This document shows, in pieces, positions 9,020 through 37,111 of a stretch of 64,000 nt of DNA. How positions within the stretch are numbered: position 1 is the stretch's first letter; each line of letters starts with the position of its first letter. The notes beneath the pieces are model-generated. The model saw only the letters and a list, made by a program, of their open reading frames with translations, did no database searches and was not told the origin of the DNA. The position numbers were made by a program, and so were the translations under genes. The stretch comes from an uncultured Actinomycetota bacterium (GTDB lineage Bacteria; Actinomycetota; Actinomycetes; Mycobacteriales; Pseudonocardiaceae), in assembly GCA_963729115.1 (NCBI GenBank), contig CAVSMR010000003.1, positions 1,093,720-1,157,719 on the forward strand, given 5' to 3'.

Positions 9020-9029
9020 GAATCGCGGG

Positions 9030-9518: not shown

Positions 9519-10021
9519 GCGAGCTCGAGCCGGACATCCACCCCGACGCCTGGGTGCATCCGGACGCCACGATCATCGGCAACGTCTCGCTGGCGGCGTT
9601 CGTGTCGGTGTGGCCGCAGGCCGTGCTGCGCGGCGACACCGGCGAGATCGTGATCGGCGAGCGGACGAACGTCCAGGACGGCACGATCATCCACTGCACC
9701 AGGGTCCACCCGACACGCATCGGCCCGGACTCCGCGGTCGGGCACAACGCGCACATCGAGGGCGCGATCATCGGCACGCGGTGCCTGATCGCCTCGGGTT
9801 CGGTGCTGCTCAACGGTTCCGTGGTCGAGGACGGCGCGGTGCTCGGCGCGGGCGCGGTGATGCCGTACAACGGACACCTGCCGGCGGGACGGATGGCGCT
9901 GGGCGTGCCGGCGCGGGTGCGGGAGGACGCCGACGTGCCCGCGGACATGGTGTCGAGGATCGTGGAGAACTACGTGGCCCGGATCGCGAAATACCGGGCG
10001 GGCCTGCGCCGCCTCGACTGA
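9500..10021 (+). CDS. Gamma-carbonic-anhydrase-like hexapeptide-repeat protein
   Basis: [25 protein letters not shown]; GTG 9500 after GGAGG. Confidence 0.85.
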
Positions 10022-10044
10022 CCGACGCGCTAGGGTCCCGTCCC

Positions 10045-10722
10045 GTGACCGCGCGACCGTTGCCCGAAATCGTCGAGGCCGGCTGGGCGGAGGCACTCGC
10101 TCCCGTGGCCGACCGTATCGCCGCGATGGGGGAGTTCCTCCGTACCGAGATCGCCGCGGGCCGCAAGTACCTGCCGGCCGGGAACCACGTGCTGCGGGCG
10201 TTCCAGCAGCCGTTCGCCGACGTGCGCGTGCTGATCGTCGGGCAGGACCCATACCCGACGCCCGGCCACCCGATCGGCCTGTGCTTCTCGGTGGCGCCGG
10301 ACGTGCGGCCGCTGCCGAAGAGCCTGGTGAACATCTACACCGAGTACACCGACGACCTGGGCCACCCACCGCCCGCGAACGGCGACCTGTCGCCGTGGAC
10401 CGAGAACGGCGTGCTGCTGCTCAACAGGGCGCTGACCGTCGAGCCGGGCAAGCCGAACTCCCACCAGGGCAAGGGCTGGGAGGAGGTCACCGAGCAGGCG
10501 ATCCGCGCGCTGGCCGCCCGTGGTGGCCCGCTGGTGGCGATCCTGTGGGGCCGCAACGCACGCAACCTGCGGCCGCTGCTCGACCCCGTGCCGTGCATCG
10601 AGTCGGCGCACCCGAGCCCGCTGTCGGCCCGGTCGGGCTTCTTCGGGTCGAAGCCGTTCAGCCGGGCCAACCAGCTGCTGGAGCAGCAGGGCGCGCCGGC
10701 CATCGACTGGAAGCTGCCCTGA
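10045..10722 (+). CDS. ung: Uracil-DNA glycosylase (family 1)
   Basis: [23 protein letters not shown]. Confidence 0.95.
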
Positions 10723-10734
10723 GGTTTGGGCGGT

Positions 10735-10765
10735 TTGACCTCGACCTAAGCCGAGGTCGCATACT
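10735..10765 (+). promoter_or_regulatory. MerR/SoxR-type promoter (TTGACC-19 bp-CATACT) with dyad operator
   Basis: -35 10735-10740, 19-nt spacer, -10 10760-10765; dyad GACCTCG..CGAGGTC; ATG 6 nt after the -10 implies a leaderless mRNA. Confidence 0.7.
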
Positions 10766-10771
10766 CGCGGC

Positions 10772-11170
10772 ATGGCACTGACAGAGGCGGAGATCGCCTA
10801 CCTGGAGTCGCAACCGCTGGGCCGGCTCGCGACCGTGTCGCCGGACGGAACGCCCCAGGTCAAGCCGGTCGGCTTCCGGTACGACCCGGACCTGCGGGTG
10901 ATCGACATCGGCGGCCACGCCCTGGCGGCGAGCACGAAGTACCGCAACGTGGCCGCGGGCAGCCGCGCGTCGCTGGTCGTCGACGACCTGGTGTCCCGGC
11001 AGCCGTGGGTCGTCCGCGGCATGGAGATCCGCGGCGACGCCGAGGCGCTCGACGGCCAGGAGCCGATGCTTCCCGGGTTCTCCGGCCAGCGAATCCGCAT
11101 CCACCCGCGGCGCGTCATCACGTGGGGCATCGAGCCCGGCCAGGACGGCATGCGTGGGCGGGACTACTGA
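10772..11170 (+). CDS. PPOX-class probable F420-dependent oxidoreductase
   Basis: YLESQPLGRLATV..GTPQVKPVGF..KYRNV..LVVDD..RGMEIRG. Confidence 0.85.
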   Translation: MALTEAEIAYLESQPLGRLATVSPDGTPQVKPVGFRYDPDLRVIDIGGHALAASTKYRNVAAGSRASLVVDDLVSRQPWVVRGMEIRGDAEALDGQEPMLPGFSGQRIRIHPRRVITWGIEPGQDGMRGRDY

Positions 11171-11176
11171 GACATG

Positions 11177-11209
11177 CGAAGGCCGGGCCCTGCACGGGCC
11201 CGGCCTTCG
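11177..11209. terminator. Bidirectional intrinsic terminator
   Basis: Perfect 14-bp stem CGAAGGCCGGGCCC / GGGCCCGGCCTTCG between convergent genes. Confidence 0.85.
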
Positions 11210-11231
11210 GGGTTTTCGTCTGTGTCCCGGG

Positions 11232-11423
11232 TCAGCCGCGGGTGACCTTGCCTGCCTTGAGGCAGGAGGTGCACACGTTCAGCCGCTTGCGCTGCGATTG
11301 GCCGATCTTCGCGTGCACGGTCTGAATGTTCGGGTTCCACCGGCGGTTCGTGCGCCGGTGGGAGTGCGAGACCGACTTGCCGAAGCCTGGCCCCTTGCCA
11401 CAGACGTCGCAGACGGCAGCCAC
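11232..11423 (-). CDS. rpmB: 50S ribosomal protein L28 (Zn-binding C+ type)
   Basis: [43 protein letters not shown]; AAGGAG SD. Confidence 0.97.
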
Positions 11424-11611
11424 GTCAGGCACTCCTTTCGCTTCTGATTGGATACCGACCGGACGCGGTCGGAAAGCCTTGTCGGCGCGCTTGCGCCGCG
11501 CAGACCCTCGTAGGGTATCGGCTCGCGCCGACAGGTCGCACACCACCCCACTAGTCTCCGCATGTCGAGGTCGCTCGGGGGCGGCCGGAAGGCTGGCTTC
11601 GGGAGGGTTGG

Positions 11612-13393
11612 ATGCTGCGCGCGCTGAACGCCGCACACGTGCGCCGGTGGGCGGTGGCGTGCGTGCAGTCGCTGGACGCGCACCGGGAGGCCATCGACCG
11701 GATCAACGTCTTCCCGGTCGCGGACGGCGACACGGGCTCGAACCTCCTGCACACCATGCGCGCCGCGCTGGACGCGCTGCTCCGCGCCCCGGCACCCGCC
11801 CGGACGGAGGCGAGCGCGGCGCTGGCCGCCCTGGCGAAGGGCGCGCTGACCGGCGCGCGCGGCAACTCGGGCGTGATCATCTCCCAGATGCTGCGCGGCG
11901 CCGCCGACGCGGCGACCGCCGACGCGGCGACCGCTGCCCCCGATCCGGGCGCGGGGCCTGCCGCCGGTCCGGCCGGGGCTGGTCTGGCCGCTGGCGCGGG
12001 TGTCGTCGACCTCGTTGCTGCTGGTTCGGTGGGTGTGGCCGGTGGGCCGGGCATCACCGGGTTTGGGGTGCGGGCTGCGTTCGTCCGGGGGGCTGAGCGG
12101 GCGCTAGCCGCTGTGGCTGAGCCTGTGGCTGGGACCATGATCAGCGTGCTCTCGGCTGCCGCGGAGGCCGCTGCGGCTGAAACCTCCGACGAGCTGGGTG
12201 ACGTCGTGGCCGCCGCCGCGGCGGGGGCCGCGGCGGCCCTCGATGAGACGCCTCGGCAGCTCGCGGTGCTGGCCAGTGCCGGTGTGGTCGACGCCGGTGG
12301 GCGGGGGGTCGTCGTGTTGCTCGATGCGCTCGTGGCCGTCGTCAGCGAGCAGCCGGCGGCGCTTGCCGCGGCCCAGCGAGCCCGCATCGAGCAGGTGGCC
12401 GCGCCTTCGGTGCAGTCGATGTACACCGCGCGGGAGTCGGGGTCGGACGCGTTCGCCTATGAGGTCATGTACCTCCTCGAAGGGGTGGACGGCGCCGGCG
12501 ACCCGATCGGCCGGTTGCGGGACTCGCTCGTCGGGCTCGGTGACTGCGTCTCGGTCGTCGGGGACGGGGCCGGGCTGTGGACCGTCCACGTGCACTGCAA
12601 CGACATCGGCGCGGCCATCGAGGTCGGCGTCGAGACCGGCACGCCGCGCCAGATCCGGGTGGCGCGCTTCGCCGACGCGCCCTCCGCCGAGGCGTCCCGG
12701 TTCGTCAAGGACCGGGCCGTGGTCGTGCCGGTGCGCAGCACCGAGCTCGCCGACCTGCTGATCCGCGAGGGCGTCACGGTCGCCCACGTCGAGGACGGCG
12801 ACGGCGACGACCACATCGCCTACCGCCTGCTCGAGGCCGTCACCGGCACCGCCGCGGCACACGTCAGCGTCCTGCCCGGCGATGCCACGCTGATCGAGGC
12901 CTGCGACGAGGCCGCGATCCGCGCGGTGGCCGCCGGCCAGGACGTCGTCGTGGTGCCGTGCGCGTCGCCGGTACAGGTGCTCGCCGCGGTCGCCGTACAC
13001 GATCCGCGCCGGCGCGCGGGCGACGACGTGGTGGCCATGGCCGAGGCCGCGGCGGCAACCCGCCGGGGCGAGGTCGTCGTGTCGGCCGAGGCCGCGATCA
13101 CCTGGATCGGCGCGTGCGAGGCCGGCGACGTGCTCGGCTTCGCCGACGGCGAGGTGGTGCTCATCGAGGCGGGGCCACCGGGGGTGGACGTCCTCGACCG
13201 CGCCGCGTGCGGCGTGGTCGAGCGCATGCTCGGGATGGGCGGCGAGCTGGTCACCGCCCTGCTCGGCGCGGACGCGCCCGACGAGCTCGCCACCGAGCTC
13301 ACCGACTACGTGCGTCGCGAGCATCCGGAGACGGAGCTGGTCGTGTACCACGGCGGCCAGGCCGGCGCGGTGCTGATCGTCGGCGTCGAGTGA
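11612..13393 (+). CDS. DAK2-domain (FakA-like) protein
   Basis: [41 protein letters not shown]; position between rpmB and recG. Confidence 0.92.
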
Positions 13394-21742: not shown

Positions 21743-21839
21743 TGCTGAGGGGCCTGTCACGTGGGACTGACCACCCGATACGCGGGAATCACCGGGTAAC
21801 GTGCTGAGGACTCGTCACCGGCACGTGGAGGTATCCGGC

Positions 21840-24800
21840 ATGTTCCGCAAGGTCCTCGTGGCGAACCGCGGGGAGATCGCCATCCGGGCGTTCCGCGCCG
21901 GATACGAGCTCGGCGCCGGCACGGTCGCCGTCTTCCCCCACGAGGACCGCAACTCGCTGCACCGGATGAAGGCCGACGAGGCCTACGAGATCGGCGAGGC
22001 CGGGCACCCGGTGCGGGCGTACCTGTCCGTCGAGGAGATCGTCAAGGCCGCCCGCAAGGCCGGGGCGGACGCGGTCTACCCGGGCTACGGCTTCCTCTCG
22101 GAGAACCCCGAGCTCGCCCGCGCGTGCGAGGCGGCCGGCATCACGTTCGTCGGCCCGTCGACCGAGATCCTCGAGCTGACCGGCAACAAGGCGCGCGCCG
22201 TCGCCGCCGCGCGGGAGGCCGGGCTGCCGGTGCTGCGCTCGTCGGAGCCGTCGGCGGACCTGGACACCCTGCTCGCGGCGGGGGAGGAGCTGGGCTTCCC
22301 GCTGTTCGTCAAGGCGGTCGCCGGCGGTGGCGGGCGCGGCATGCGGCGGGTGCTCGAGGCCGGGGCGCTGCGCGAGTCGATCGAGGCGGCCATGCGCGAG
22401 GCCGAGTCCGCGTTCGGCGACCCGACCGTGTTCCTCGAGCAGGCGGTCGTGCACCCGCGCCACATCGAGGTGCAGATCCTGGCCGACGGCGTGGGTGGCG
22501 TGCTGCACCTGTTCGAGCGCGACTGCTCGGTGCAGCGGCGCCACCAGAAGGTCATCGAGATCGCGCCCGCGCCGAACCTGGACCCGGAGCTGCGGGACCG
22601 GATCTGCGCCGACGCGGTCCGCTTCGCCCGGCACATCGGCTACCGCAACGCCGGCACCGTCGAGTTCCTGCTGGCGCAGGACGGCCGGCACGTGTTCATC
22701 GAGATGAACCCGCGCATCCAGGTCGAGCACACGGTGACCGAGGAGGTCACCGACGTCGACCTCGTGCAGTCGCAGCTGCGCATCGCCGCGGGCGAGACGC
22801 TCGACGACCTGGGGCTGCGGCAGGAGGACATCCGCACGCGCGGCGCCGCGCTGCAGTGCCGCATCACGACCGAGGACCCGGCCAACGGGTTCCGCCCGGA
22901 CACCGGGATCATCAGCGCCTACCGGTCGCCGGGTGGCGCGGGCATCCGGCTCGACGGCGGCACCGACTTCTCCGGCACGGAGATCAGCGCGCACTTCGAC
23001 TCGATGCTGGTCAAGCTCTCCTGCCGCGGGCGGGACTTCCCGGCCGCGGTGGCCCGGGCCCGGCGCGCGGTCGCCGAGTTCCGCATCCGCGGCGTGGCCA
23101 CGAACATCCCGTTCCTGCAGGCCGTGCTGGACGACCCGGACTTCCTCGCGGGCCGGGTCACCACGGCGTTCATCGAGGACCGGCCGCACCTGCTGACCGC
23201 GCGGCACTCCGCCGACCGCGGCACCCGGCTGCTGACCTACCTCGTCGACGTCACGGTCAACAAGCCGCACGGCGAGCGGCCCGAGATCATCGACCCGGCG
23301 AAGAAACTGCCCGCGGTCGACGTGGCCACGCCGCCCGCCGGCACCAAGGAGCGGCTCACCGAACTGGGGCCGGAGGGCTTCGCGCGCTGGCTGCGGGAGT
23401 CGAAGGCGGTGGGCGTCACCGACACGACGTTCCGCGACGCGCACCAGTCGCTGCTCGCCACCCGGGTGCGCACGAAGGACCTGGTCACGGTCGCGCCGTA
23501 CGTCGCGCAGCTGATGCCCGAGCTGCTGTCCGTGGAGTGCTGGGGCGGCGCGACCTACGACGTGGCGCTGCGCTTCCTGGCCGAGGACCCGTGGGAGCGG
23601 CTGGCGGCGCTGCGCACGGCGTTGCCCAACCTGTGCCTGCAGATGCTGCTGCGCGGGCGCAACACCGTCGGCTACACGCCCTACCCGACCGAGGTGACCG
23701 CCGCGTTCGTCGAGGAGGCGGCCGCCACCGGCATCGACATCTTCCGGATCTTCGACGCGCTGAACGACGTCGAGCAGATGCGGCCGGCCATCGACGCGGT
23801 GCTCGAGACCGGCACCTCGGTCGCCGAGGTGGCGCTCTGCTACACGGCCGACCTGTCCGACCCGGCCGAGCGTCTGTACACATTGGACTACTACCTGAAG
23901 CTCGCCGAGCAGATCGTCGGCGCGGGCGCGCAGGTGCTGTGCGTCAAGGACATGGCCGGGCTGCTGCGCCCGCCGGCCGCGCACCGGCTGGTCACCGCGC
24001 TGCGCAAGGAGTTCGACCTGCCGGTGCACCTGCACACCCACGACACCGCGGGCGGGCAGCTCGCCACCTACCTCGCCGCCATCCAGGCCGGGGTGGACGC
24101 GGTCGACGGCGCCGCCGCGTCGATGGCCGGCACCACCTCGCAGCCGTCGCTGTCCGCGATCGTCGCGGCCACCGACCACGGCGAGCGGGAGACCGGGCTG
24201 GACCTGCAGTCGGTGTGCGACCTGGAGCCGTACTGGGAGATCGTGCGCAAGGTCTACGCGCCGTTCGAGGCGGGGCTGCCCGGGCCGAGCGGGCGCGTGT
24301 ACACCCACGAGATCCCGGGTGGACAGCTGTCGAACCTGCGCACCCAGGCCACCGCGCTCGGTCTCGCGGACCGCTTCGAGCAGATCGAGGCGACCTACGC
24401 GGCGGCCGACCGGATGCTCGGCCGGCTGATCAAGGTGACCCCGTCGTCCAAAGTGGTCGGTGATCTCGCGCTGCACCTCGTCGGCGCGGGGGTGTCCCCG
24501 GCGGACTTCGAGGCCGACCCGGGCCGCTACGACGTGCCCGGCTCGGTGATCGGTTTCCTGCGCGGCGACCTCGGCGACCCGGCGGGCGGCTGGCCGGAGC
24601 CGTTCCGCAGCAAGGCGTTGCGCGGTCGTGCCGAGCCGAAACCGGCCGCCGCGCTGTCGGCGGAGGACCTGACCGGCCTGGCGCAGGACCGTCGCGCGAC
24701 GCTCAACCGGCTGCTGTTTCCCGAGCCCACCAAGGAGTTCCTGACCCACCGCGAGCAGTTCGGCGACACGAGCGTGCTGGCGAGCAAGGACTTCTTCTAC

Positions 24801-25214
24801 GGGCTGCGGTCGCGCATCGAGTACCCGGTCGACCTCGAGCGCGGCGTCCGGCTGCTGATCGAGCTGGAGGCGATCGGCGAGGCCGACGAGCGCGGCATCC
24901 GCAACGTGATGGCCAACCTCAACGGCCAGCTGCGGACCATCCAGGTCCGCGACCGGTCCGTGGCCTCGGACCTGCCGGTCGCCGAGCGCGCCGACCGGGC
25001 CAACCCGGGGCACGTCGCCGCGCCGTTCGCCGGTGTCGTGACGCTGCAGGTGGGCGAGGGCGACGAGGTCGAGACGGGCGACACGGTGGCCACCATCGAG
25101 GCGATGAAGATGGAGGCCTCGATCACCGCCCCGACGGCCGGCACCGTGGCCCGCCTGGCGATCAGCTCCGTGGCACAGGTCGAGGGTGGCGACCTGCTCG
25201 TCGTCCTGAGCTGA
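21840..25214 (+). CDS. pyc: Pyruvate carboxylase
   Basis: KVLVANRGEIA, YPGYGFLSEN, RDAHQSLLATR, HLHTHDT, biotinyl EAMKME; ATG 21840 after GGAGG. Confidence 0.97.
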   Translation: MFRKVLVANRGEIAIRAFRAGYELGAGTVAVFPHEDRNSLHRMKADEAYEIGEAGHPVRAYLSVEEIVKAARKAGADAVYPGYGFLSENPELARACEAAGITFVGPSTEILELTGNKARAVAAAREAGLPVLRSSEPSADLDTLLAAGEELGFPLFVKAVAGGGGRGMRRVLEAGALRESIEAAMREAESAFGDPTVFLEQAVVHPRHIEVQILADGVGGVLHLFERDCSVQRRHQKVIEIAPAPNLDPELRDRICADAVRFARHIGYRNAGTVEFLLAQDGRHVFIEMNPRIQVEHTVTEEVTDVDLVQSQLRIAAGETLDDLGLRQEDIRTRGAALQCRITTEDPANGFRPDTGIISAYRSPGGAGIRLDGGTDFSGTEISAHFDSMLVKLSCRGRDFPAAVARARRAVAEFRIRGVATNIPFLQAVLDDPDFLAGRVTTAFIEDRPHLLTARHSADRGTRLLTYLVDVTVNKPHGERPEIIDPAKKLPAVDVATPPAGTKERLTELGPEGFARWLRESKAVGVTDTTFRDAHQSLLATRVRTKDLVTVAPYVAQLMPELLSVECWGGATYDVALRFLAEDPWERLAALRTALPNLCLQMLLRGRNTVGYTPYPTEVTAAFVEEAAATGIDIFRIFDALNDVEQMRPAIDAVLETGTSVAEVALCYTADLSDPAERLYTLDYYLKLAEQIVGAGAQVLCVKDMAGLLRPPAAHRLVTALRKEFDLPVHLHTHDTAGGQLATYLAAIQAGVDAVDGAAASMAGTTSQPSLSAIVAATDHGERETGLDLQSVCDLEPYWEIVRKVYAPFEAGLPGPSGRVYTHEIPGGQLSNLRTQATALGLADRFEQIEATYAAADRMLGRLIKVTPSSKVVGDLALHLVGAGVSPADFEADPGRYDVPGSVIGFLRGDLGDPAGGWPEPFRSKALRGRAEPKPAAALSAEDLTGLAQDRRATLNRLLFPEPTKEFLTHREQFGDTSVLASKDFFYGLRSRIEYPVDLERGVRLLIELEAIGEADERGIRNVMANLNGQLRTIQVRDRSVASDLPVAERADRANPGHVAAPFAGVVTLQVGEGDEVETGDTVATIEAMKMEASITAPTAGTVARLAISSVAQVEGGDLLVVLS

Positions 25215-26287: not shown

Positions 26288-26929
26288 ATGGTCGTCAAGA
26301 AGCGGGTCACCTACGCTCGTCCGATGCCGGACGGGGAGCGCAAGCGCAGCAGCTACCACCACGGTGCGCTGCGCGAGGAGCTGCTCGAGGCATGCGTGCG
26401 GCTGATCGAGGCGGAGGGCATCGGCGCGGTGAGCCTGCGCCGGGTCGCGCGCGAGGCCGGGGTCAGCCCGGGCGCGCCGTACCACCACTTCCCGGACCGC
26501 GCGGCGCTGCTCGCGGCGATCTCGGTGCGGGGGTTCGAACAGCTCGCGACCGACCTGGGCGCGGCCCGCGAGACGGCCTCGGTCTTCCGCGAGGTGCTCC
26601 TCGCGATGCTCGTGGCCTATGTGGACTTCGCCCGCCGGCACAAGGCGTACTTCCAGCTCATGTTCCGCCCGGAGCTCTCGCAGCCGGAGAAGCACCCGGA
26701 CGCGCGCGCCGCGGGCGACGCCGCCTTCGCCGTGCTGACCGACGTGGTCGCGGACTGCGGGGTGTCGGATCCGGACGGCCTGGCCGTCTCCTTGTGGGCC
26801 TTCGGGCACGGCCTCGCATCGCTCGCGATCGACGGCCAGCTCGACCACCGCGGCGAGCTGTGGTGCACGTCGGCCGACGACCTGGTCGGGCGCGCCTTGC
26901 GGTTCGTCGAGTCGGTCCTGCCCGGCTGA
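26288..26929 (+). CDS. TetR-family regulator (WHG-type C-domain)
   Basis: YHHGALREELL, SLRRVAREAGVSPGAPYHHF, LWAFGHG. Confidence 0.92.
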   Translation: MVVKKRVTYARPMPDGERKRSSYHHGALREELLEACVRLIEAEGIGAVSLRRVAREAGVSPGAPYHHFPDRAALLAAISVRGFEQLATDLGAARETASVFREVLLAMLVAYVDFARRHKAYFQLMFRPELSQPEKHPDARAAGDAAFAVLTDVVADCGVSDPDGLAVSLWAFGHGLASLAIDGQLDHRGELWCTSADDLVGRALRFVESVLPG

Positions 26930-27024
26930 GCCCCGGCGCACGCGCCGGCGCCTTCGAAGTGATAGGCGCGTTCACGCATTCGCGCCAGATTCCGTGAGGA
27001 TCTGGCGATCTTGGGTCCGCTGAC

Positions 27025-27039
27025 GTTACGGTGTGTCAC
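27025..27039 (+). promoter_or_regulatory. BldD-like box GTTACGGTGTGTCAC
   Basis: Matches 8 of 9 constrained positions of NTNACNC(A/T)GNGTNAN; 58 nt upstream of the multicopper oxidase ATG. Confidence 0.45.
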
Positions 27040-27097
27040 CGGCCTTGGGCCGGTCCGATCGGTGGGGACCGATCGGCTGGGAATCTGGGGGTTCCTG

Positions 27098-30000
27098 ATG
27101 ACGATGCGTTTTTACGACGTCGTCGCGTTGCGGGTACCGATTGCCTTCGACGCGCACGGCGACCACGACCGGCAGGGGATGATCTTCGCGCTCGGCGAGA
27201 ACGCCGACGCGCTGCGCGAGATCGCGGCGGGCTGGCCCGATCCGTTCCCGGACCCGGTCGAGCATCCGGAGCTGATGCCGGCACCGGATCCGCTCGTCCG
27301 CCCGCTGGTGCTGCGGGCCAACGTGGGCGACCGGGTGGCCATCATGTTCCGTAACCATCTCGACCGGCCGGCGGGCATCCACGTGCAGGGCGTCGGCTAC
27401 GACGTCGACACGATGGACGGCGGCCAGGTCGGCCGCAACGCCGACTCGGCGGCCCGCGCGGGCGGGCGGCGCAGCTATGTCTGGGAGTGCACCGACGAGG
27501 GCGTGTTCTTCTTCCACGACCTCGCCGACATCCGGGGCGGGGAGGACGGCTCCAACGCCCACGGCCTGTTCGGCGCGCTGGTCGTCGAACCCGCGGGTGC
27601 ACAGTGGACGGACCCGGTGACGGGCCGGCCGGTGGTCGACGGGCTCTACGCCGACATCCACGTGCCGGGCCAGCCGAGCTTCCGCGAGTACGTCGTCTTC
27701 ATGCAGGACGAGGCGCCCAACGACAATCCGGTCAAGCCGCCGCACCCGACCTACGAGTGCGACCTGCCGCGCCCGCACGGGCATTCGGTCATCCGCGGCG
27801 AGGAGCGGCTCGTGCCCACGATCCTGACCGGGGACGACGAGCACGGGCACGGCGGGCACGCCGGCGAGGCCATGGACTCGATGATGGTCATGAGCTACCG
27901 CACCGAGCCGATGGGCTGGCGCGCGCTGGCCTACGAGCGGCTGCTCGAGCAGGGGCGGATCGACCCGGCGCGCGACGCGATCGTCGGCGAGGAGCAGCAC
28001 CACAGCTCGTGGCTGTTCGGCGACCCGGCGACGCCGATCCTGCGTGCCTACCAGGGAGACCGGGCGAAGATCCGGCTCGTGCACGCGGGCGTCAAGGAGA
28101 CCCACGTCTTCCACCTGCACCTGCACCAGTGGCGCGCGGTGCCGGGCCACGACGAGGCGCCGATCATCGACTCGATCTCGATCACGCCGCAGCAGGCGTT
28201 CACGATCGAGCCGATCGGTGGCGCGGGCTCGGTGCAGCGCGCGACCGGCGACATCATCTGGCACTGCCACCTCTACCCGCACTTCCACTCCGGCATGTGG
28301 GGTATGTGGCGGGTGTTCGACAAGCTGCAGGACGGCTCCGGCAGCTACCCGGACGGCACGCCGATCGCGGCGCTGCAGCCGCTGCCCGGCCACGAGCCGC
28401 CGGTGGCGCCGACCGCGCAGCGGCCCGGGTTCCCGGCGTTCATCGCCGGCGAGTACCCGCAGAAGTCGCCCCGCCCGCCGCGCACGCCGCTGATGCCCGA
28501 GGGTATGGGCCGCGAGCCGACCGAGCTGGAGCGCAACGCGTTCTGTCCCGACCCGCAGCCCGGCGAGGCGTTCACGAAGGCCACGCTCGACCCGGACGCG
28601 CCGGTGCGCCACTACCACCTCGTCGTGCTCGAGGGGACGGTCGACTACTACGAGTCCGCCGGCGAGGGCGGCCACGCGAACAGCTGGCACGACCACCGCG
28701 CGGTGTTCTTCGTGCTGGCCGAGGAGATCGAGGAGGCCGGCGGTGTCGAGGAGTTCCGGCGGCAGCTCGAGGAGGGCGCCCGCAAGGTCGCGCCGATCGC
28801 CATCCGCGCCCGCAAGGGCGAGGTGCTCGAGCTGACGCTCACCAACGAGCTGCCCACCGGCTGCCAGGCGGCGACGGCGTTCGACGCGGTGCTGCCGTTC
28901 CAGCCGGAGTGCGGGCTGCACGTGCACCTGGTCAAGTTCGACCCGCTGACCTCCGACGGCGCGAGCGTCGGCTGGAACTACCTGTCCGGCACGACGACCG
29001 CCGACCAGGGCGACGAGGACCACGAGCGGTACCGCAGCTGGATCTACCGGTGGTACTGCGACGAGGAGTTCGGCGTCGTGTTCTTCCACGACCACCTGCT
29101 CGCCAACGAGCGCCAGCGGCATGGCCTGTTCGGCGCGATGATCGCCGAGCCGCCGGGCGCGGTGTGGGTCGACCCGCACGACCACGCGCGCGAGGTGCGC
29201 AACGGCAACCAGGCGGTCGTGCTGCTGCCGGACGGCTCCGCGTTCCGCGAGCAGGTGCTGGGCGTCGCGGACTTCGTGCCGCTCGTCGAGCACGGCGACG
29301 GTGCGGACGGCGTGCCGATCAACCCGCCCGCGTTCCCCGGCTCGCTGGACGACCAGGGTGTGATGGGCGTGGACTACCGGTGCGCGCCGCTGCACGAGCG
29401 GCCCGGCGACCCGGCGCAGTGGTTCGCGAGCGAGGTGCACGGCGACCCGGGCACGCCGATCCTGCGCGGGTACCCGGGGGAGAGCATCCGGATCCGCCTC
29501 TACCAGGGCTCGCACGAGGAGCAGCACAGCTTCACCGTGCACGGCATGCGCTGGCACGCGTGGCGCGACGACCCGGCCTCGCCGGTGCGCGACCAGCAGA
29601 CCATCGGCATCTCCGAGGCGTTCAGCTTCCACCTGGACCGGGACACGCTGCCCGGCGATCACCTGTGGAGCTTCACCACTGCCGACGAGACCTGGCTCGG
29701 GCTGTGGGGGTTCATCCGGCTGCACGAGTCCCTTGTGGACGATCTGCCGGCCATCGCGGGTGCCTTCGAGGGGGCGGGGCTGCCGCCGATCGACCCGGTC
29801 CGGGTGCGGCGCTACGACGTGCGGGTGGTGCCGCACGAGATCGCCTACAGCGACCAGCGCAGCGACCCGTTCGGCACGGTGTACACAGTGGACGGACAGC
29901 CGCCGGGCGATCCGCTGATCCTGCGCTGCCGGGTCGGCGAGTGGGTGGAGATCCGGCTGCACAACGACCTGCCCGGACCCGGCGAGCCGACCCCGTTCGA

Positions 30001-30787
30001 CCCGGTGTTCTCCGCGAAGGACGAGCCCGCCGAGCGGGAGATCTCCGAGCGGGTGTCGCTGCACGCCGGCAGCCTGCTGCGCACGGACGTGCGGACCGCG
30101 GACGGCGCATGGGTCGGCCGCAACCCGGACACCACCATCAAGCCGGGTGACGAGATCGTGCAGCGCTGGTACGCCGACCGCGAGGGCGTGGTGCTGCTGC
30201 AGGATCGGGCGGACGTGCGGACGCACCGCCACCGCGGCCTCGTCGGCGCGCTCGTCGTGGAGCCGGCGGACGTGACGCCCACGAAATGGGTGGGGGCGCG
30301 CGCGGACCTGCGCGGGCCCGGCGGCTCGCTCGAGCGGGAGCTGGTGCTGCTGCTGCAGGACGGGGTGCGCATGTACCACGACGGCGACGCGACGCAGCCG
30401 GTCCGCGACCTGGAGGACGAGCCGGACGACACGGGGCAGAAGGCGCTGAACTACCGCAGCGCGCACCTGCTGCCGCGGCGCCCGTCGCTGGCCGATCCGG
30501 ATCCGGGCACGCCCGTGCTCGACTGCGCGCCGGGCGACCGGGTGAAGCTGCATCTCGTGCTGGGCACCGACCGTGCGCGCAACCACGGTTTCCTGGTGCA
30601 CGGCCATACCTGGCCGATGGAGGAGCACCTGAGCTCGCCGCGGGTGGGGGCGATCGGGGCCTTGAGCGTCGCCGGCGCTCGGACGCTCCGGTTCACGGCG
30701 GGAGATGCGGGTGACTACGCCTACCGGTCCGGTGTCCTGCGGTGGGCGGTCACGGAAGGGTTGTGGGGCCTGATCCGGGTCCGCTGA
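27098..30787 (+). CDS. mnxG: Large six-domain multicopper oxidase, MnxG (Mn(II) oxidase)-like, 1229 aa
   Basis: THVFHLHLHQW (28103-28126), HCHLYPHFHSGM (28262-28297), HVH (28919-28927), HDH (29087-29095); repeated GDPxTP(I/V)L and G(M/L)WG..RV domain ends; blocks match Bacillus MnxG as recalled. Confidence 0.8.
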   Translation: MTMRFYDVVALRVPIAFDAHGDHDRQGMIFALGENADALREIAAGWPDPFPDPVEHPELMPAPDPLVRPLVLRANVGDRVAIMFRNHLDRPAGIHVQGVGYDVDTMDGGQVGRNADSAARAGGRRSYVWECTDEGVFFFHDLADIRGGEDGSNAHGLFGALVVEPAGAQWTDPVTGRPVVDGLYADIHVPGQPSFREYVVFMQDEAPNDNPVKPPHPTYECDLPRPHGHSVIRGEERLVPTILTGDDEHGHGGHAGEAMDSMMVMSYRTEPMGWRALAYERLLEQGRIDPARDAIVGEEQHHSSWLFGDPATPILRAYQGDRAKIRLVHAGVKETHVFHLHLHQWRAVPGHDEAPIIDSISITPQQAFTIEPIGGAGSVQRATGDIIWHCHLYPHFHSGMWGMWRVFDKLQDGSGSYPDGTPIAALQPLPGHEPPVAPTAQRPGFPAFIAGEYPQKSPRPPRTPLMPEGMGREPTELERNAFCPDPQPGEAFTKATLDPDAPVRHYHLVVLEGTVDYYESAGEGGHANSWHDHRAVFFVLAEEIEEAGGVEEFRRQLEEGARKVAPIAIRARKGEVLELTLTNELPTGCQAATAFDAVLPFQPECGLHVHLVKFDPLTSDGASVGWNYLSGTTTADQGDEDHERYRSWIYRWYCDEEFGVVFFHDHLLANERQRHGLFGAMIAEPPGAVWVDPHDHAREVRNGNQAVVLLPDGSAFREQVLGVADFVPLVEHGDGADGVPINPPAFPGSLDDQGVMGVDYRCAPLHERPGDPAQWFASEVHGDPGTPILRGYPGESIRIRLYQGSHEEQHSFTVHGMRWHAWRDDPASPVRDQQTIGISEAFSFHLDRDTLPGDHLWSFTTADETWLGLWGFIRLHESLVDDLPAIAGAFEGAGLPPIDPVRVRRYDVRVVPHEIAYSDQRSDPFGTVYTVDGQPPGDPLILRCRVGEWVEIRLHNDLPGPGEPTPFDPVFSAKDEPAEREISERVSLHAGSLLRTDVRTADGAWVGRNPDTTIKPGDEIVQRWYADREGVVLLQDRADVRTHRHRGLVGALVVEPADVTPTKWVGARADLRGPGGSLERELVLLLQDGVRMYHDGDATQPVRDLEDEPDDTGQKALNYRSAHLLPRRPSLADPDPGTPVLDCAPGDRVKLHLVLGTDRARNHGFLVHGHTWPMEEHLSSPRVGAIGALSVAGARTLRFTAGDAGDYAYRSGVLRWAVTEGLWGLIRVR

Positions 30788-30836: not shown

Positions 30837-31664
30837 ATGGTGGACCGTGTGACTTCGCAGACCGCGTTGAAGGCTGCCGCCGGCCGCGCCGCGCACCTGC
30901 TCGTGGACCAGCCGCCCTACCTGCTCGACGATCCCGTGGCCGAGCGCATGCTCGGGGACCGGGCGGACGAGCTGATCGATCGGCACCGGCTGGCCGGTGC
31001 CGATCCCGTCGTGACGGCCGCCCGCGCACAGGTCACGGCCCGCACGCGGTTCACCGAGGACCGGCTCGCGGCGGCCGGGCTGGACCAGTACGTGCTGCTG
31101 GGCGCCGGGCTCGACTCGTTCGCGCACCGGTCGCCGCTGGCCGGGGCGGTGCGGGTGTTCGAGGTGGACCACCCGGAAACGCAGGAGTACAAGCGATCGG
31201 TCGCGCCGGACGGGCCGGTGACCTACGTGCCGGTCGACTTCGCGACGGACGGGTTGCTGGATCGGCTGACCGCCGCGGGTTTCGACCCGGCCCGCCCGGC
31301 GTTCGTCAGCTGGCTCGGCGTGTCGGTCTACCTCGACCTGCCCGACATCGAGCGGCTCTTGGCCGTGGTCGGCGCGTTCGCGCCCGGCAGCGAGCTCGTC
31401 GCGGAGCACATGCTGCCCGCCGGGCATCGCGACGCCGCCGGTGACGCGTACATCGAGGCGATCGAGCCCATGGTGGTGCGCGTCGGCGAGCCGTGGCGGA
31501 GCATGCTGTCCGCCGCGGCCATCACGGACGTGTTGCAGCGCAACGGGTTCGGCGCGGTGCGCTCGGTCCGCCAGCGCGACTGGGTCGACCCCGTGCTGTG
31601 GGAACGCAGCGACGGCCTGGCCCCGATCCAGGTGTCGGCGCTCGCGCACGCGGTGGTGGGCTGA
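30837..31664 (+). CDS. SAM-dependent methyltransferase (LCM/Rv0893c-like)
   Basis: QYVLLGAGLDSFAHR, VFEVDHPETQ, VPVDF, SWLGVSVYL. Confidence 0.88.
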   Translation: MVDRVTSQTALKAAAGRAAHLLVDQPPYLLDDPVAERMLGDRADELIDRHRLAGADPVVTAARAQVTARTRFTEDRLAAAGLDQYVLLGAGLDSFAHRSPLAGAVRVFEVDHPETQEYKRSVAPDGPVTYVPVDFATDGLLDRLTAAGFDPARPAFVSWLGVSVYLDLPDIERLLAVVGAFAPGSELVAEHMLPAGHRDAAGDAYIEAIEPMVVRVGEPWRSMLSAAAITDVLQRNGFGAVRSVRQRDWVDPVLWERSDGLAPIQVSALAHAVVG

Positions 31665-31665
31665 G

Positions 31666-33774
31666 TCAGTCCGGCGGCCAGGCAGGGTCGGTGGTCAGGA
31701 CGGTCAGGCGCTGGGTGGCGCGGGTCAGCGCCACGTACAGGGTGCGCGGGCCGGTCGTCGACTCGGTCACCAGCTCGTTGGGCTCCACGAGGACGACCGC
31801 GTCGTACTCCAGGCCCTTCGCGTCCAGGCCGTCGACCACGGACAGGCGCTCATCGTCCACTTCGGACAGCGCGGTGCGCACCGCGGCGAGCCGGCTGGTC
31901 GCGGTGATCACGCCCACCGTGCCGTCCACGTCGGCGAGCAGCTCGGCCGCCGCCGTGCGCACGGCGGCGGGGAGCTCGGTGGCCGACAGCGTGCGGACCG
32001 AGGGCTTCACCCCGGTCGAGCGCACGGCCGTGGGCAGCTGGTCGGGCGTGGCCACGCCGCCGACCACCTTGGCGGCCAGCTCGAAGATCTCCGCGGAGTT
32101 GCGGTAGTTCGTGGCGAGCGTGAAGCGCCGCAGCGTCGCGCGGGCGCCCAGCGCCGCGGCCCGGGCCGACGCCGCCTCCGCCGGGTCCGGCCACGAGCTC
32201 TGCACCGGGTCGCCGACGATCGTCCAGCTCGCGTACCTGCCGCGCCGGCCGACCATGCGCCACTGCATGGGGGAGAGGTCCTGCGCCTCGTCGACGACGA
32301 TGTGCGAGTACTCGTCGTAGTGCTCGGCCCGCCGGTAGCCCTGGACCGCCTCGCCCCATGCCGCGAGCTCGGCCGCCTGCTGCGCGGCCCGCCGCCGGTG
32401 CCGCCGCGGCGGCTTGCCCAGCAGCACCCGCAGCTCGTCCAGCAGCGCCACGTCCGCGACCGTCGGTCCGGCCGACCCCGTCCACGACGCCGCGAGCAGG
32501 CCGACCTCGTGCGGCGAGAGCGTCCGCCCGGCGGCCGCGGCCAGCCGCGTCCGGTCCGCGAACCAGGCCAGCACCTCGCGCGCGGTCAGGATCGGCCACC
32601 ACACCACCACGAACCGGTGGAAGTCGATGCGCTCGCCGAGCTCGGTGACCAGCGTGTCGTGATCCATGCCCGGCCGGTCGTGCGCCTGCCGCCACAACGC
32701 CTCCAGCAGCGCTTCCGCGGCGTCCACCCGGGACTGGTTCGGCGGGCGCCCGGCCGCGTGCACGGCGCGGCGCACCCGGGCGAGCTCGCTCGCGTCGAGC
32801 TTGAGGACCTCGCCGCGGTAGGTGATCCGCAGCTGCTCCGGCGCGTCCGGTGGCGCCTCCCGCAGCGCCCGCTTGAGCACCCGCCGCATCCGCAGCGACC
32901 CCTTGACCCGCGCCACGTCGGGGGTGTCGTGCGCCACGGCCCCGGCCCCGTCGAGTACCTCGCCCAGCGAGCGGAGCTCGACCGTGTCCTCGCCCATCGA
33001 GGGCAGCACGCGGGAGATGTAGGACGTGAACGCCGCCGACGGGCCGATCACGAGCACGCCGGAGCCGCCCATCCGCCGCCGGTCGCGGTAGAGCAGGTAG
33101 GCGACCCGGTGCAGCGCCACCGCGGTCTTGCCGGTGCCCGGCCCGCCGGTGATCTCGGTGATCCCGCGCCACGGCGCGCGGATCGCCTCGTCCTGCTCCT
33201 TCTGGATCGTGGCGACGATGTCGCGCATCTTGTCGCCGCGGGCGCGGGTGAGCGAGGCCATCAGCGCGCCCTCGCCGACCACGGCCATGCTCTCGGGCCG
33301 CCGGTCCGGCGCGAGCAGGTCGTCGTCGATGTCCACAACGGACTGGCCGGTCGAGCGGATGACGCGGCGGCGGATGACGTTCATCGGCTGCTCGGCGGTG
33401 GCCTGGTAGAACGCGGCCGCGGCCGGCGCCCGCCAGTCGGTGACCAGGTTGTCGAAGTTCAGGTCCCGCACGCCGAGCCGGCCGACGTGCATGGTCTCGC
33501 CGTCGGTGGTGTCCAGCCGGCCGAACACCAGACCCTCGTGCTCGGCGTCGAGGCTGCGCAGGATCTGGTTGGCGTGGCGCACCATCACGTCGCGTTCGAA
33601 CAGCATGGACGCCTGCTCGAAGATGGCCTCGTTGCGGGCGCCGTGCGCGAGCTGGTCACCGCGGCGGCGCATGTCCCGCGCCTCGGTGCGCATCTCCTCG
33701 ACCCGTGCGTACACGACATCGATATGAGCTTGCTCGACCGCGATCTCGGCCTGCCTGACAGAGGTGTGCGACAC
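31666..33774 (-). CDS. helD: HelD-like UvrD/SF1 ATPase (RNA polymerase recycling family)
   Basis: DWRAPAAAAFY, MRDIVATIQKEQD, GGPGTGKTAVALHR, VVDEAQD, KGLEYD, LYVALTRATQRL. Confidence 0.8.
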   Translation of the reverse strand: MSHTSVRQAEIAVEQAHIDVVYARVEEMRTEARDMRRRGDQLAHGARNEAIFEQASMLFERDVMVRHANQILRSLDAEHEGLVFGRLDTTDGETMHVGRLGVRDLNFDNLVTDWRAPAAAAFYQATAEQPMNVIRRRVIRSTGQSVVDIDDDLLAPDRRPESMAVVGEGALMASLTRARGDKMRDIVATIQKEQDEAIRAPWRGITEITGGPGTGKTAVALHRVAYLLYRDRRRMGGSGVLVIGPSAAFTSYISRVLPSMGEDTVELRSLGEVLDGAGAVAHDTPDVARVKGSLRMRRVLKRALREAPPDAPEQLRITYRGEVLKLDASELARVRRAVHAAGRPPNQSRVDAAEALLEALWRQAHDRPGMDHDTLVTELGERIDFHRFVVVWWPILTAREVLAWFADRTRLAAAAGRTLSPHEVGLLAASWTGSAGPTVADVALLDELRVLLGKPPRRHRRRAAQQAAELAAWGEAVQGYRRAEHYDEYSHIVVDEAQDLSPMQWRMVGRRGRYASWTIVGDPVQSSWPDPAEAASARAAALGARATLRRFTLATNYRNSAEIFELAAKVVGGVATPDQLPTAVRSTGVKPSVRTLSATELPAAVRTAAAELLADVDGTVGVITATSRLAAVRTALSEVDDERLSVVDGLDAKGLEYDAVVLVEPNELVTESTTGPRTLYVALTRATQRLTVLTTDPAWPPD

Positions 33775-33873
33775 CCAGCCGCTCCAGGTGGTGAGTGGGA
33801 AGAGCGAGCCTACGCGAATTCAGCCGTCCGGGGGGTGCGAACCCTGGTGGCGGCCCTGCGCGACGATGTCCCG

Positions 33874-34422
33874 GTGACCAGGATCGTGGCCGGGAGTGCG
33901 GGCGGGCGCCGGCTCGCCGTGCCGAAGGGAGGAACCCGGCCGACTTCCGACCGGGTTCGCGAGGCGCTGTTCAGCGCGGTCGAGGCCGCCATGGACCTCG
34001 AGGGTGCCCGCGTGCTGGACCTGTACGCCGGGACGGGCGCGCTCGGGCTGGAGGCGTTGTCGCGCGGCGCGGCCACGGCGGTGCTGGTCGAGTCGGACGC
34101 GAGCGCGGTGGCGGTGCTGCGCAAGAACATCGCCGCGGTCGGGCTGCCCGGCGCGGTGGCGCGGCCGGGCAAGGTCGCGGCGGTGCTCGCCGAGCCGCCC
34201 GCGGCGCCGTTCGACCTCGTGCTCGCCGACCCGCCGTACGCGCTGGACCCGGCCGGCGACCTGGTGGCACTCGTGTCGCACGGCTGGGTCGCCCCGGGCT
34301 CGCTGGTGGTGGTCGAACGGGCCCGCCGCTCCGGCCCACCGACGTGGCCGGCCGGGCTGGTATCCGGCAGGACCCGCCGCTACGGCGACACGGAACTGCA
34401 CTGGGCACGAGCCGAGGGCTGA
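33874..34422 (+). CDS. rsmD: 16S rRNA m2G966 methyltransferase
   Basis: RIVAG..GRRL, TRPTSDRVREALF, LDLYAGTGALGLEALSRG, DPPY. Confidence 0.93.
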   Translation: MTRIVAGSAGGRRLAVPKGGTRPTSDRVREALFSAVEAAMDLEGARVLDLYAGTGALGLEALSRGAATAVLVESDASAVAVLRKNIAAVGLPGAVARPGKVAAVLAEPPAAPFDLVLADPPYALDPAGDLVALVSHGWVAPGSLVVVERARRSGPPTWPAGLVSGRTRRYGDTELHWARAEG

Positions 34423-34541
34423 CCAGCGGTGACCTAAGGGGACCGTGACGCAACCCAGCCCCGCGCACGTGATCAACCGCACCCAACCGGGGAAACGCAA
34501 CCAACACAAAGAAATCCGGGGAGGCGGTACAGTCCGCCCCT

Positions 34542-35024
34542 ATGAGGCGCGCGGTGTGTCCTGGTTCGTACGACCCGCCGACCAACGGTCACCTCGACAT
34601 CCTCGAGCGGACCGCCGCCGTGTTCGACGAGGTCGTCGTCGCGGTGCTGATCAACAAGAACAAGCGCGGCCTGTTCACGGTCGAGGAACGCATGGAGCTG
34701 CTCGCCGAGACGGTTGCCCACCTGCCCAACGTGCGGATCGACTCGTGGCACGGCCTGCTGGTGGACTACTGCCGGCAGAACGACGTCAGCGTGATCGTCA
34801 AGGGCCTGCGCGCGGTGAGCGACTTCGACTACGAGCTGCAGATGGCGCAGATGAACCAGCAGCTGGCGGGCGTGGAGACGCTGTTCATGCCGACGAAGCC
34901 GCTGAACAGCTTCCTGTCCAGCTCGCTGGTCAAGGAGGTGGCCACCTACGGCGGCGACGTGGCACACCTGCTGCCCGAGAACGTGTACCGCCGCCTGCGC
35001 AAACGCCTCGCCGAGGAGAGCTGA
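34542..35024 (+). CDS. coaD: Phosphopantetheine adenylyltransferase
   Basis: CPGSYDPPTNGHLD, KGLRAVSDFDYE, SSSLVKE. Confidence 0.97.
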   Translation: MRRAVCPGSYDPPTNGHLDILERTAAVFDEVVVAVLINKNKRGLFTVEERMELLAETVAHLPNVRIDSWHGLLVDYCRQNDVSVIVKGLRAVSDFDYELQMAQMNQQLAGVETLFMPTKPLNSFLSSSLVKEVATYGGDVAHLLPENVYRRLRKRLAEES

Positions 35025-36301: not shown

Positions 36302-36394
36302 CACGCCAGAAAGGCCCGGCCTCCCCCGACCACCCCGCACGAGACGGCAGACTGGGCCGTGGAGTCATGCGCCGGGGAGGCGGAGGAGGCACGG

Positions 36395-37111
36395 GTGTAC
36401 AAGGTGTTCGAGGCGCTCGACGAGCTCGTCACGATCCTGGAGGAGGCCAGGGGGCTGCCGATGACGTCCAGCTGCGTGGTGCCTCGCGGTGACCTCCTCG
36501 AACTGCTCGACGAGGTGCGCGACGCCCTCCCGGGGGAGGTCGACGACGCGCAGGACGTCCTCGACCGCAAGGACGAGATCATCGGCAAGGCCGAGCACGA
36601 GGCCGAGCAGACGATCAGCAAGGGCAACCTCGAGGCGCAGAAGGCGATCGAGGAGGCCCGCGCGGAGGCCGAGCGGATCGTGGCCGAAGCCCGCGCGCAC
36701 GCCGACCGGCTCGTCGCCGACGCCGAAGCGGAGGCGGACCGGACCGTCGCGGCGGGTCAGGCCAAGTTCGACGACCTGGTCAACCGCTCCCAGGACGAGG
36801 CGGACCGGATGATCCAGGCCGGCCGCGAGTCCTACGAGCGCCAGGTCGAGGACGGCCGGCTCGAGCAGGCCCGGCTGGTGTCCCAGACCGACGTCGTGCA
36901 GGCCGCGCACGCCGAGTCCGCCCGCATCCTCGACGCGACCGCCGACGAGGCCGCCCGCCAGCGCGGCGAGTGCGACGAGTACGTCGACAGCAGGCTCGCG
37001 GAGTTCGGCGACCTGCTCACCCACACCCTGCGCACGGTCGACAAGGGCCGCGCCCACCTGCGCGGGACCGCCCTCAACGGCAGTGCCGCGCCGTTCGACT
37101 ACCAGGCCTGA
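36395..37111 (+). CDS. sepIVA: SepIVA (Rv2927c-like) DivIVA-domain coiled-coil protein
   Basis: YKVFEALDELVTILEEARGLPMTSSCVVPRGD; position before yceD-rpmF-rnc. Confidence 0.85.
   Translation: MYKVFEALDELVTILEEARGLPMTSSCVVPRGDLLELLDEVRDALPGEVDDAQDVLDRKDEIIGKAEHEAEQTISKGNLEAQKAIEEARAEAERIVAEARAHADRLVADAEAEADRTVAAGQAKFDDLVNRSQDEADRMIQAGRESYERQVEDGRLEQARLVSQTDVVQAAHAESARILDATADEAARQRGECDEYVDSRLAEFGDLLTHTLRTVDKGRAHLRGTALNGSAAPFDYQA

Follow-up and report, generated by a model that had tools for sequence, protein, structure and literature searches.

An apparently stand-alone member of the Bacillus MnxG family of six-domain multicopper oxidases in an uncultured actinomycete

Does an actinomycete carry a manganese oxidase of the kind known from Bacillus spores, and if so, could the enzyme work alone, and where did its gene come from? 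These questions are raised by a gene at positions 27098–30787 (+ strand, stop codon included) of a 64,000-nucleotide stretch of DNA from an uncultured bacterium of the Pseudonocardiaceae (GenBank assembly GCA_963729115.1, contig CAVSMR010000003.1), which we call the window. A first-pass annotation, made from the sequence alone, had read this gene as an orthologue of MnxG, the Mn(II) oxidase of Bacillus, probably acquired laterally and possibly conferring Mn(II)-to-MnO2 biomineralisation. In our best explanation, to which we assign a probability of roughly 0.6, its product is a catalytically intact, stand-alone six-domain multicopper oxidase of the Bacillus MnxG family, inherited vertically within Actinophytocola.

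The top match of the 1229-residue protein in the PDB is chain A of 9bxa, the MnxG of Bacillus sp. PL-12 (phmmer, E 8.8e-234), aligned over the full length in three stretches (residues 3–207, 265–886 and 934–1228 of the oxidase); the next matches are two-domain laccases at E ~1e-11. Pfam recognises Cu-oxidase_3 at residues 72–165 and Cu-oxidase_2 at 309–406. Over 1126 aligned positions the oxidase is 40% identical to a Bacillus-type MnxG, the reference being a frameshifted mnxG from an mnx operon on a metagenome contig, merged for alignment; when the database was searched with an MnxG fragment taken from the PDB alignment, every Bacillus gene call that came back was truncated or frameshifted. 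The spore MnxG of Bacillus sp. PL-12/SG-1 (MnxE3F3G complex, PDB 9BXA) is also similar in length (~1220 residues, compared with 1229), shares the six-cupredoxin fold, is 38–40% identical over the full length, and likewise has no signal peptide. An AlphaFold model covering residues 1–1200, built with 39 aligned sequences as input, reached a mean predicted local distance difference test score (pLDDT) of 86.8 and a predicted template-modelling (TM) score of 0.88, and its overlay on 9bxa_A (the 'Mnx H340A complex') gave TM scores of 0.85/0.84. Thus the full-length match, the shared fold and the intact copper ligands described below uphold the earlier description of the protein as an MnxG-type giant multicopper oxidase.

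The relationship extends to individual sequence blocks, which the first-pass annotation had listed for Bacillus MnxG and which we found in the Bacillus-type sequence. In pairs giving the window oxidase first, these are HHSSWLFGDPATPILRAYQGD and HHDSWVYGDPSTPILRGYVGD, GVKETHVFHLHLHQW and GVKETHVFHYHVHQW, HCHLYPHFHSGMWG and HCHLYPHFAAGMWG, DPLTSDGASVGWNY and DVLVNDGANVGWNY, and GDYAYRSG and GDYMYRSG; the pattern EEQHHSSW...FGDPATPILR, beside the copper motifs, is common to both enzymes. The other protein that bears the name MnxG, that of the Pseudomonas putida type (NCBIfam NF041487, a model of 1894 positions for proteins of ~1900 residues), resembles the window oxidase in its repeated cupredoxin domains and in a local match to the copper motifs, but the oxidase scores 236.9 bits against a cut-off of 3100 and is not a member. 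Judged by these comparisons, the oxidase belongs to the Bacillus-type, not the Pseudomonas-type, MnxG family.

Two other groups of cupredoxin proteins are more distant. The eukaryotic proteins ceruloplasmin and coagulation factors V/VIII are also built of six cupredoxin domains as a triplicated pair, and the model superimposes on them with TM scores of 0.5–0.63, ceruloplasmin (0.53–0.63) being its second-best structural match after MnxG; however, identity is only ~12%, and sequence matches are local (E 1e-4 to 1e-6). Ceruloplasmin has its trinuclear copper cluster between domains 1 and 6 and a type-1 copper site in each of domains 2, 4 and 6, whereas in the window oxidase domain 2 alone bears a type-1 site, and the cluster lies between domains 2 and 3. 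The small laccases of Streptomyces (SLAC, Ssl1) resemble a single cupredoxin pair of the oxidase (E ~1e-11). They are trimeric enzymes of ~280–320 residues, exported by the twin-arginine translocation (Tat) pathway; in contrast, all six domains of the window oxidase belong to one chain, which has no signal peptide.

The domain plan follows from the protein itself. Its thirds align with one another (self-BLAST E 1.6e-26, 6e-17 and 2e-24; hhalign probability 100), so that it consists of a triplicated two-cupredoxin unit, or six domains, in agreement with the repeat architecture proposed initially. Repeat unit A (residues 1–430, domains 1 and 2; 27098–28387, + strand), delimited by BLAST, hhalign and the secondary structure of the model, carries in domain 2 the type-1 site together with one half of the trinuclear cluster. 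Domain 3 of unit B (residues 500–885, domains 3 and 4; 28595–29752, + strand; internal repeat and model) gives the other half, and unit C (residues 895–1229, domains 5 and 6; 29780–30784, + strand) has neither a cysteine nor a complete copper motif.

All four copper motifs quoted in the first-pass annotation are present, and all lie inside the first 54% of the protein, within the N-terminal two-thirds to which they had been assigned. The HxxHxH motif (H336, H339 and H341; 28103–28120, + strand; kept in 97–100% of 59 family members), embedded in THVFHLHLHQW at residues 335–345, supplies one type-1 histidine and two histidines of the trinuclear cluster. The HCHx3Hx4M motif (H389, C390, H391, H395 and M400; 28262–28297, + strand; kept in 97–98%), which is HCHLYPHFHSGM at residues 389–400, supplies the type-1 cysteine, histidine and methionine and two further cluster histidines. 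The HVH motif at residues 608–610 (H608 and H610; 28919–28927, + strand; 100% kept) and the HDH motif at 664–666 (H664 and H666; 29087–29095, + strand; kept in 97–98%) complete the set. The type-1 ligands are thus H336, C390, H395 and M400, and the trinuclear-cluster histidines are H339, H341, H389 and H391 from domain 2 and H608, H610, H664 and H666 from domain 3. Each of the 11 His/Cys ligands is kept in 97–100% of the 59 aligned family members; Met400, compared across 39 aligned sequences, is kept in at least 90%. At one ligand, H395, the aligned position 340 of the 9bxa chain is alanine, because the PDB entry is an H340A mutant; a wild-type Bacillus-type sequence has histidine there.

Elsewhere in the protein the equivalent positions are incomplete: the cysteine is absent in domains 4 and 6, and domains 1 and 5 are without full HxH pairs. 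We conclude that domain 2 holds the only type-1 site and that the only trinuclear cluster lies where domains 2 and 3 meet, the same arrangement with identical ligand motifs as in Bacillus MnxG. Outside the canonical motifs, H810 in domain 4, H1043 in domain 5 and H1168 in domain 6 (nucleotides ~29525, 30224 and 30599) are invariant in all 59 members and match copper-ligand positions by the internal repeat, a pattern that suggests extra mononuclear metal sites.

Two further features set the scene for where the enzyme may act. Between domains 1 and 2 lies a disordered linker rich in His, Gly and Met (...PHGHS...DDEHGHGGHAGEAMDSMM; residues 216–259; 27743–27874, + strand; pLDDT <50), which may bind metal. 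Across clades, this linker occurs in the members from actinomycetes, cyanobacteria and proteobacteria, where its length varies, and is absent in those of Bacillus and Clostridia, so that it is an extra element relative to Bacillus MnxG. At the N terminus, we found no twin-arginine motif in the first 80 residues and no hydrophobic or membrane segment (top 19-residue hydropathy 1.05), as expected from the initial reading that a signal peptide is lacking; all 22 family members inspected, from all clades, likewise have no export signal.

The gene call itself is well determined. The open reading frame (ORF) runs on the + strand from an ATG at 27098 to a TGA at 30785–30787, and the start is supported by orthologues that begin at the same point (MSVRFFDVVAL and MTVRTYDVVAL). 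The GC content of the window is 71–74%, and the GC content at third codon positions (GC3) of the oxidase frame, 0.95, equals that of the surrounding genes. The ratio of nonsynonymous to synonymous substitution rates (dN/dS), calculated against four Actinophytocola orthologues, is 0.23–0.44 and points to purifying selection. One orthologue, at 8543–12387 of locus L006 from an Actinophytocola metagenome-assembled genome (MAG), was left out of this calculation; it is split into two overlapping ORFs by a frameshift that is probably an assembly error. GC3, the intact copper ligands and dN/dS together rule out a pseudogene or a chance ORF, and an antisense ORF of 1200 residues (27026–30628) was rejected as the usual artefact of high-GC DNA. 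Translation, GC3 and orthologue starts thus bear out the 1229-residue ORF as first called, and Pfam, the PDB match, the AlphaFold model and dN/dS concur in its assignment as an MnxG-family gene with six cupredoxin domains. A G-rich, Shine-Dalgarno-like run read from the sequence lies 6 nt 5' of the ATG (27087–27091, + strand), and a promoter and terminator scan around the gene gave nothing exceeding chance. Among sequencing runs, the sequence was matched only in soil metagenome DNA, with no RNA run among the matches.

Does this enzyme have the partners of its Bacillus relative? In Bacillus, an active enzyme is reported to require at least mnxE, mnxF and mnxG together, and the complex is MnxE3F3G (PMC5622069). 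Two metagenome contigs yielded Bacillus-type mnx operons (mnxA-G), whose MnxE and MnxF we verified against chains B and E of 9BXA. Six-frame ORFs were searched with MnxA-F by phmmer and with a hidden Markov model built from 120 MnxE sequences, at E≤0.1. Neither the 64-kb window nor any of 82 non-Bacillales oxidase loci, most of them with up to 10 kb of flank per side, gave a single match to MnxA-F, and the homologues missing from the window include those of mnxA-D, among them the SCO1/SenC-like mnxC. The same queries, as a positive control, found MnxD, MnxE and MnxF (E 9e-51, 1e-25 and 1e-23) on a Priestia megaterium plasmid, where the three genes lie directly upstream of the oxidase (L087 4456–10406, NZ_CP085418.1). 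In a large database we counted 124 MnxE homologues, and every one with an organism name is from Bacillales; MnxE and MnxF thus appear to be confined to this order. Because no MnxE or MnxF match was found in the window or in related loci, the window enzyme is, as far as 64 kb of genome sequence can indicate, a stand-alone oxidase. Clustering of neighbouring genes, in 39 actinomycete loci and then in 83 non-duplicate sequences including the window, yielded no universal partner gene, only lineage-specific synteny.

Within Bacillales, the complete mnxD-E-F-G module is found together with a nearby CopC gene on Priestia megaterium plasmids of ~97–140 kb, and a DUF2935 gene lies near the Bacillus-type mnx operon in locus L085.

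How close, then, is the window oxidase to the Bacillus enzyme within the family as a whole? In a search of 5.8 billion proteins, 8000 candidates were scored, of which at least 2462 matched at E≤1e-10; many of these are full-length (1200–1440 residues) and belong to Actinophytocola, Actinomadura, Streptomyces, Actinokineospora, Pseudonocardia, cyanobacteria, Archangium, alphaproteobacteria and Clostridia. When each species was represented by one genome, relatives turned up in at least 567 species, among them other actinomycetes, cyanobacteria, myxobacteria, proteobacteria and gut Clostridia. Most matches of the protein search are annotated as 'multicopper oxidase domain-containing protein', and some are labelled 'manganese oxidase' by the Joint Genome Institute (JGI). 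The closest relatives come from Actinophytocola MAGs (87–88% identity), so that a soil Actinophytocola is the most likely origin of the window. The RefSeq proteins of Actinophytocola, Actinomadura, Streptomyces and others, at 70–89% identity, are orthologues or close paralogues of the window oxidase; the actinomycete homologues are those counted in a 2022 preprint, which lists 29 Bacillus-type MnxG homologues in Actinobacteria (bioRxiv 10.1101/2022.11.10.515945).

In a neighbour-joining tree, Bacillus MnxG falls inside a Firmicutes clade, grouped with Clostridia, whose members are 44–52% identical to Bacillus-type MnxG. The window oxidase falls inside a monophyletic Actinophytocola group within a separate actinomycete clade, which also holds Actinomadura and some Streptomyces (70–73% identity to the window oxidase). 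The versions of other Pseudonocardiaceae are more distant: those of Actinokineospora are at 55–57%, and that of Actinomycetospora, at 48%, clusters with long cyanobacterial and proteobacterial forms. The gene tree departs from taxonomy. The phylogeny therefore bears out the family to which the gene was first assigned, but orthology proves too strong a term for a protein that has 40% identity to Bacillus MnxG and sits in a different major clade. We therefore place the window oxidase in the same family as the Bacillus enzyme but do not count the two as close orthologues. The family is known, widespread and already annotated, and the window oxidase is an ordinary rather than a singular representative of it.

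The family occurs in varied genomic settings. In ten loci from gut Clostridia (L059, L060, L066, L069, L074, L078 and L081–L084) a common gene of ~315 codons lies directly upstream of the oxidase, and the occurrence of an O2-dependent oxidase family in strict anaerobes is curious. In six Actinomadura/Spirillospora loci (L010, L011, L014, L018, L023 and L030) the oxidase is followed by a Fur-like regulator and, on the opposite strand, by a catalase-peroxidase-like protein, both identified by eye. In a subclade of Actinokineospora and Streptomyces albireticuli-eurocidicus the oxidase closes a conserved, operon-like cluster (L004 1–19840, L033, L034, L035, L037, L038, L040 and L042) that encodes an aminotransferase, DUF6190, DHDPS, haem-oxygenase-like, Rieske and methyltransferase proteins, followed by DSBA and a neocarzinostatin-family protein; this cluster looks like a biosynthetic gene cluster. 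Other copies lie on Bacillus, Priestia and haloarchaeal plasmids, with full-length oxidases on plasmids of Bacillus cereus and B. mycoides. Pseudonocardia megaplasmids of 850–875 kb (L088, pBCI1-2) carry a stand-alone copy of 59% identity behind an AfsR/SARP regulator.

The history of the gene can be read from its locus. As first reported, the oxidase lies between pyc, the pyruvate carboxylase gene (21801–25214, + strand; Pfam), and rsmD (33874–34422, + strand). The order pyc, oxidase, UvrD-like helicase, rsmD, coaD is common to seven Actinophytocola-clade loci, and in the six related loci with enough flanking sequence to include it, pyc occupies the corresponding place at 89–93% identity. Compared with L005, L026, L031 and L009, respectively, the oxidase is 88, 80, 78 and 74% identical, the helicase 87, 80, 79 and 84%, and RsmD 87, 73, 72 and 74%; the divergence of the oxidase tracks that of its flanking genes. 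Its composition gives no sign of transfer, both GC (0.71–0.73) and GC3 being the same as in the flanks. The synteny and the parallel divergence indicate that the ancestor shared by the sampled Actinophytocola already had the oxidase at this place, and that the gene has been inherited vertically within the group. An older transfer among actinomycetes is plausible, because the gene tree departs from taxonomy and some family members are on plasmids.

What would such an enzyme do? Because all 12 type-1 and trinuclear copper ligands are kept, it is very probably active. Its general chemistry as a multicopper oxidase, in which oxidation of a substrate at the type-1 copper is coupled to reduction of O2 at the trinuclear cluster, is secure. 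By the logic of its copper sites, a one-electron donor would be oxidised at the type-1 copper, the electrons would pass to the trinuclear cluster through the Cys390-His389/His391 bridge, and O2 would be reduced there to water. The donor would most likely be a metal ion, with Mn(II) the single most likely candidate because its oxidation is the only activity demonstrated in this family. The oxidase would work without the MnxE3F3 accessory ring and, having no export signal, no ring and a disordered linker, would probably act inside the cell or on a cell-associated structure and not as a secreted laccase.

Several observations weigh against this picture. Actinomycetes are not known to form endospores, and an enzyme without a signal peptide in such a host would deposit manganese oxide inside the cell, where it seems unlikely to be useful. 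The family is also found in strictly anaerobic gut Clostridia, and some of its Streptomyces and Actinokineospora copies lie in biosynthetic-looking clusters, which argues against manganese mineralisation as a family-wide role. The oxidase shares only 40% identity with the characterised enzyme and belongs to a different major clade, and our literature search found no activity report for any family member outside Bacillus. Finally, only the combination of mnxE, mnxF and mnxG has yielded active Bacillus enzyme (PMC5622069), so that activity of the lone subunit is not guaranteed.

These points bear on how far the stand-alone oxidase should be likened to its Bacillus counterpart. The strongest version of the likeness, a genuine physiological Mn(II) oxidase that gives MnO2 biomineralisation and is equivalent to the Bacillus Mnx enzyme, is possible but stays on the doubtful side. 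The family, fold and copper sites are those of the only characterised member, the EEQHHSSW block is held in common, and Mn-oxidising Streptomyces isolates exist, although the trait has been linked to no gene (PMC7414890). Set against this are the absence of an MnxE or MnxF match, both in the window and in the 82 loci from outside Bacillales, the lack of an export signal, the separate clade with its 40% identity, and the wide occurrence of the family in anaerobes. No Mn- or Cu-handling gene is nearby either: the neighbours encode a TetR regulator, an epimerase, a methyltransferase and a helicase. The settings differ as well. Mn(II) activity has been demonstrated for the Bacillus enzyme, which is encoded with mnxA-F and located on the endospore exosporium, whereas the window holds none of these genes and its host is an actinomycete without endospores or exosporium.

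If the substrate is instead another metal, for example Cu(I) or Fe(II), the protein could be an intracellular metallo-oxidase in metal or oxidative-stress homeostasis, a reading that we consider unlikely. The multicopper oxidase CueO has a Met-rich segment, and by analogy the His/Met-rich linker might be a metal-capturing arm. The richness of residues 216–259 in His, Gly and Met, the occurrence of such a linker in the clades of actinomycetes, cyanobacteria and proteobacteria, with none in Bacillus, and the lack of a signal peptide are all consistent with this, as are the Fur-like regulator and catalase-peroxidase that adjoin the gene in the Actinomadura clade according to our by-eye identification. 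However, the linker is poorly kept in sequence and length and is missing altogether in Pseudonocardia endophytica, and no copper-resistance genes occur in the window neighbourhood.

Less likely still is an organic small molecule as substrate, with the oxidase serving as a laccase-like coupling or tailoring enzyme. The argument for this role comes from relatives: the gene ends the conserved, biosynthetic-looking cluster of the Actinokineospora/Streptomyces albireticuli subclade, at 55–58% identity, and the Pseudonocardia plasmid copy follows its AfsR/SARP regulator. The window neighbourhood, in contrast, consists of housekeeping genes with no biosynthetic genes among them, and no neighbour is kept across actinomycete clades.

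The first-pass annotation had favoured lateral acquisition into the pyc-rsmD interval; as a recent event, for example from Bacillus, this is very improbable: extra genes in the interval, compared with the adjacent pyc and rsmD-coaD of some other actinomycetes such as Mycobacterium tuberculosis, the variation of the small genes beside the oxidase and the plasmid-borne family members would speak for it, but GC and GC3 equal those of the flanks, the position is the same in seven loci with neighbour-like divergence, and the nearest relatives are actinomycetes at 70–89% identity compared with 40% for Bacillus.

Only the small genes immediately beside the oxidase differ among the otherwise syntenic Actinophytocola loci: in the window, the oxidase is preceded by an epimerase gene and a TetR gene and followed by a gene for an LCM-type methyltransferase; its relatives have DSBA or ABATE/zf-CGNR genes in these places. 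The TetR-family gene (26288–26929, + strand; Pfam TetR_N and TetR_C_33) ends 168 bp upstream of the oxidase and is common only to the two closest relatives, L005 and L006; it is possible that its product is a local regulator of the oxidase. The spacer between the two genes contains an imperfect palindrome (26930–26971), and its inverted repeats are weak. On the other side, between oxidase and helicase, the gene for an S-adenosylmethionine-dependent methyltransferase of LCM type (30837–31664, + strand; Pfam) is matched in none of the seven related Actinophytocola-clade loci and therefore represents a strain-specific insertion. The UvrD-like helicase (31666–33774, − strand; Pfam) is the right neighbour and is kept in all seven.

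The right anchor, rsmD, was located by tblastn with a protein from L001 annotated PF03602 (72% identity, E 8e-72); two ORFs considered for it, 33795–34448 and 33896–34432, have no Pfam match and were rejected. It is followed by coaD (34473–35024; Pfam), by a gene for a 249-residue protein with two stretches matching the barnase/RNase-Sa-type ribonuclease family PF00545 (35552–36301, + strand; Pfam) and by a 250-residue ORF without Pfam match (36359–37111, + strand). Locus L002 likewise has a ribonuclease of the same family and a 250-residue protein without Pfam match downstream of coaD.

What do these results mean for the family? On one reading, which we think less likely than not, the form found here, with neither signal peptide nor MnxE/MnxF, would be both the original and the prevailing one in the MnxG family, present in at least 567 species, strict anaerobes among them, and the window oxidase one example of it; the consequence would be either that Mn(II) oxidation can proceed without the accessory ring or that the role is an intracellular one other than manganese mineralisation. 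In the former case the window oxidase would be the first MnxG-type manganese oxidase of an actinomycete, and in the latter, with a family role in non-Mn intracellular oxidation, the Mnx complex of Bacillales would be a late specialisation. Either way, the window gene is a typical, already-annotated member of its family. If the enzyme does not oxidise Mn(II), caution would be called for over the automated 'manganese oxidase' labels carried by this large family. If the lone enzyme does oxidise Mn(II), MnxG-type manganese biomineralisation would extend to soil actinomycetes, and a simpler, single-subunit enzyme would become available for mechanistic and remediation work.

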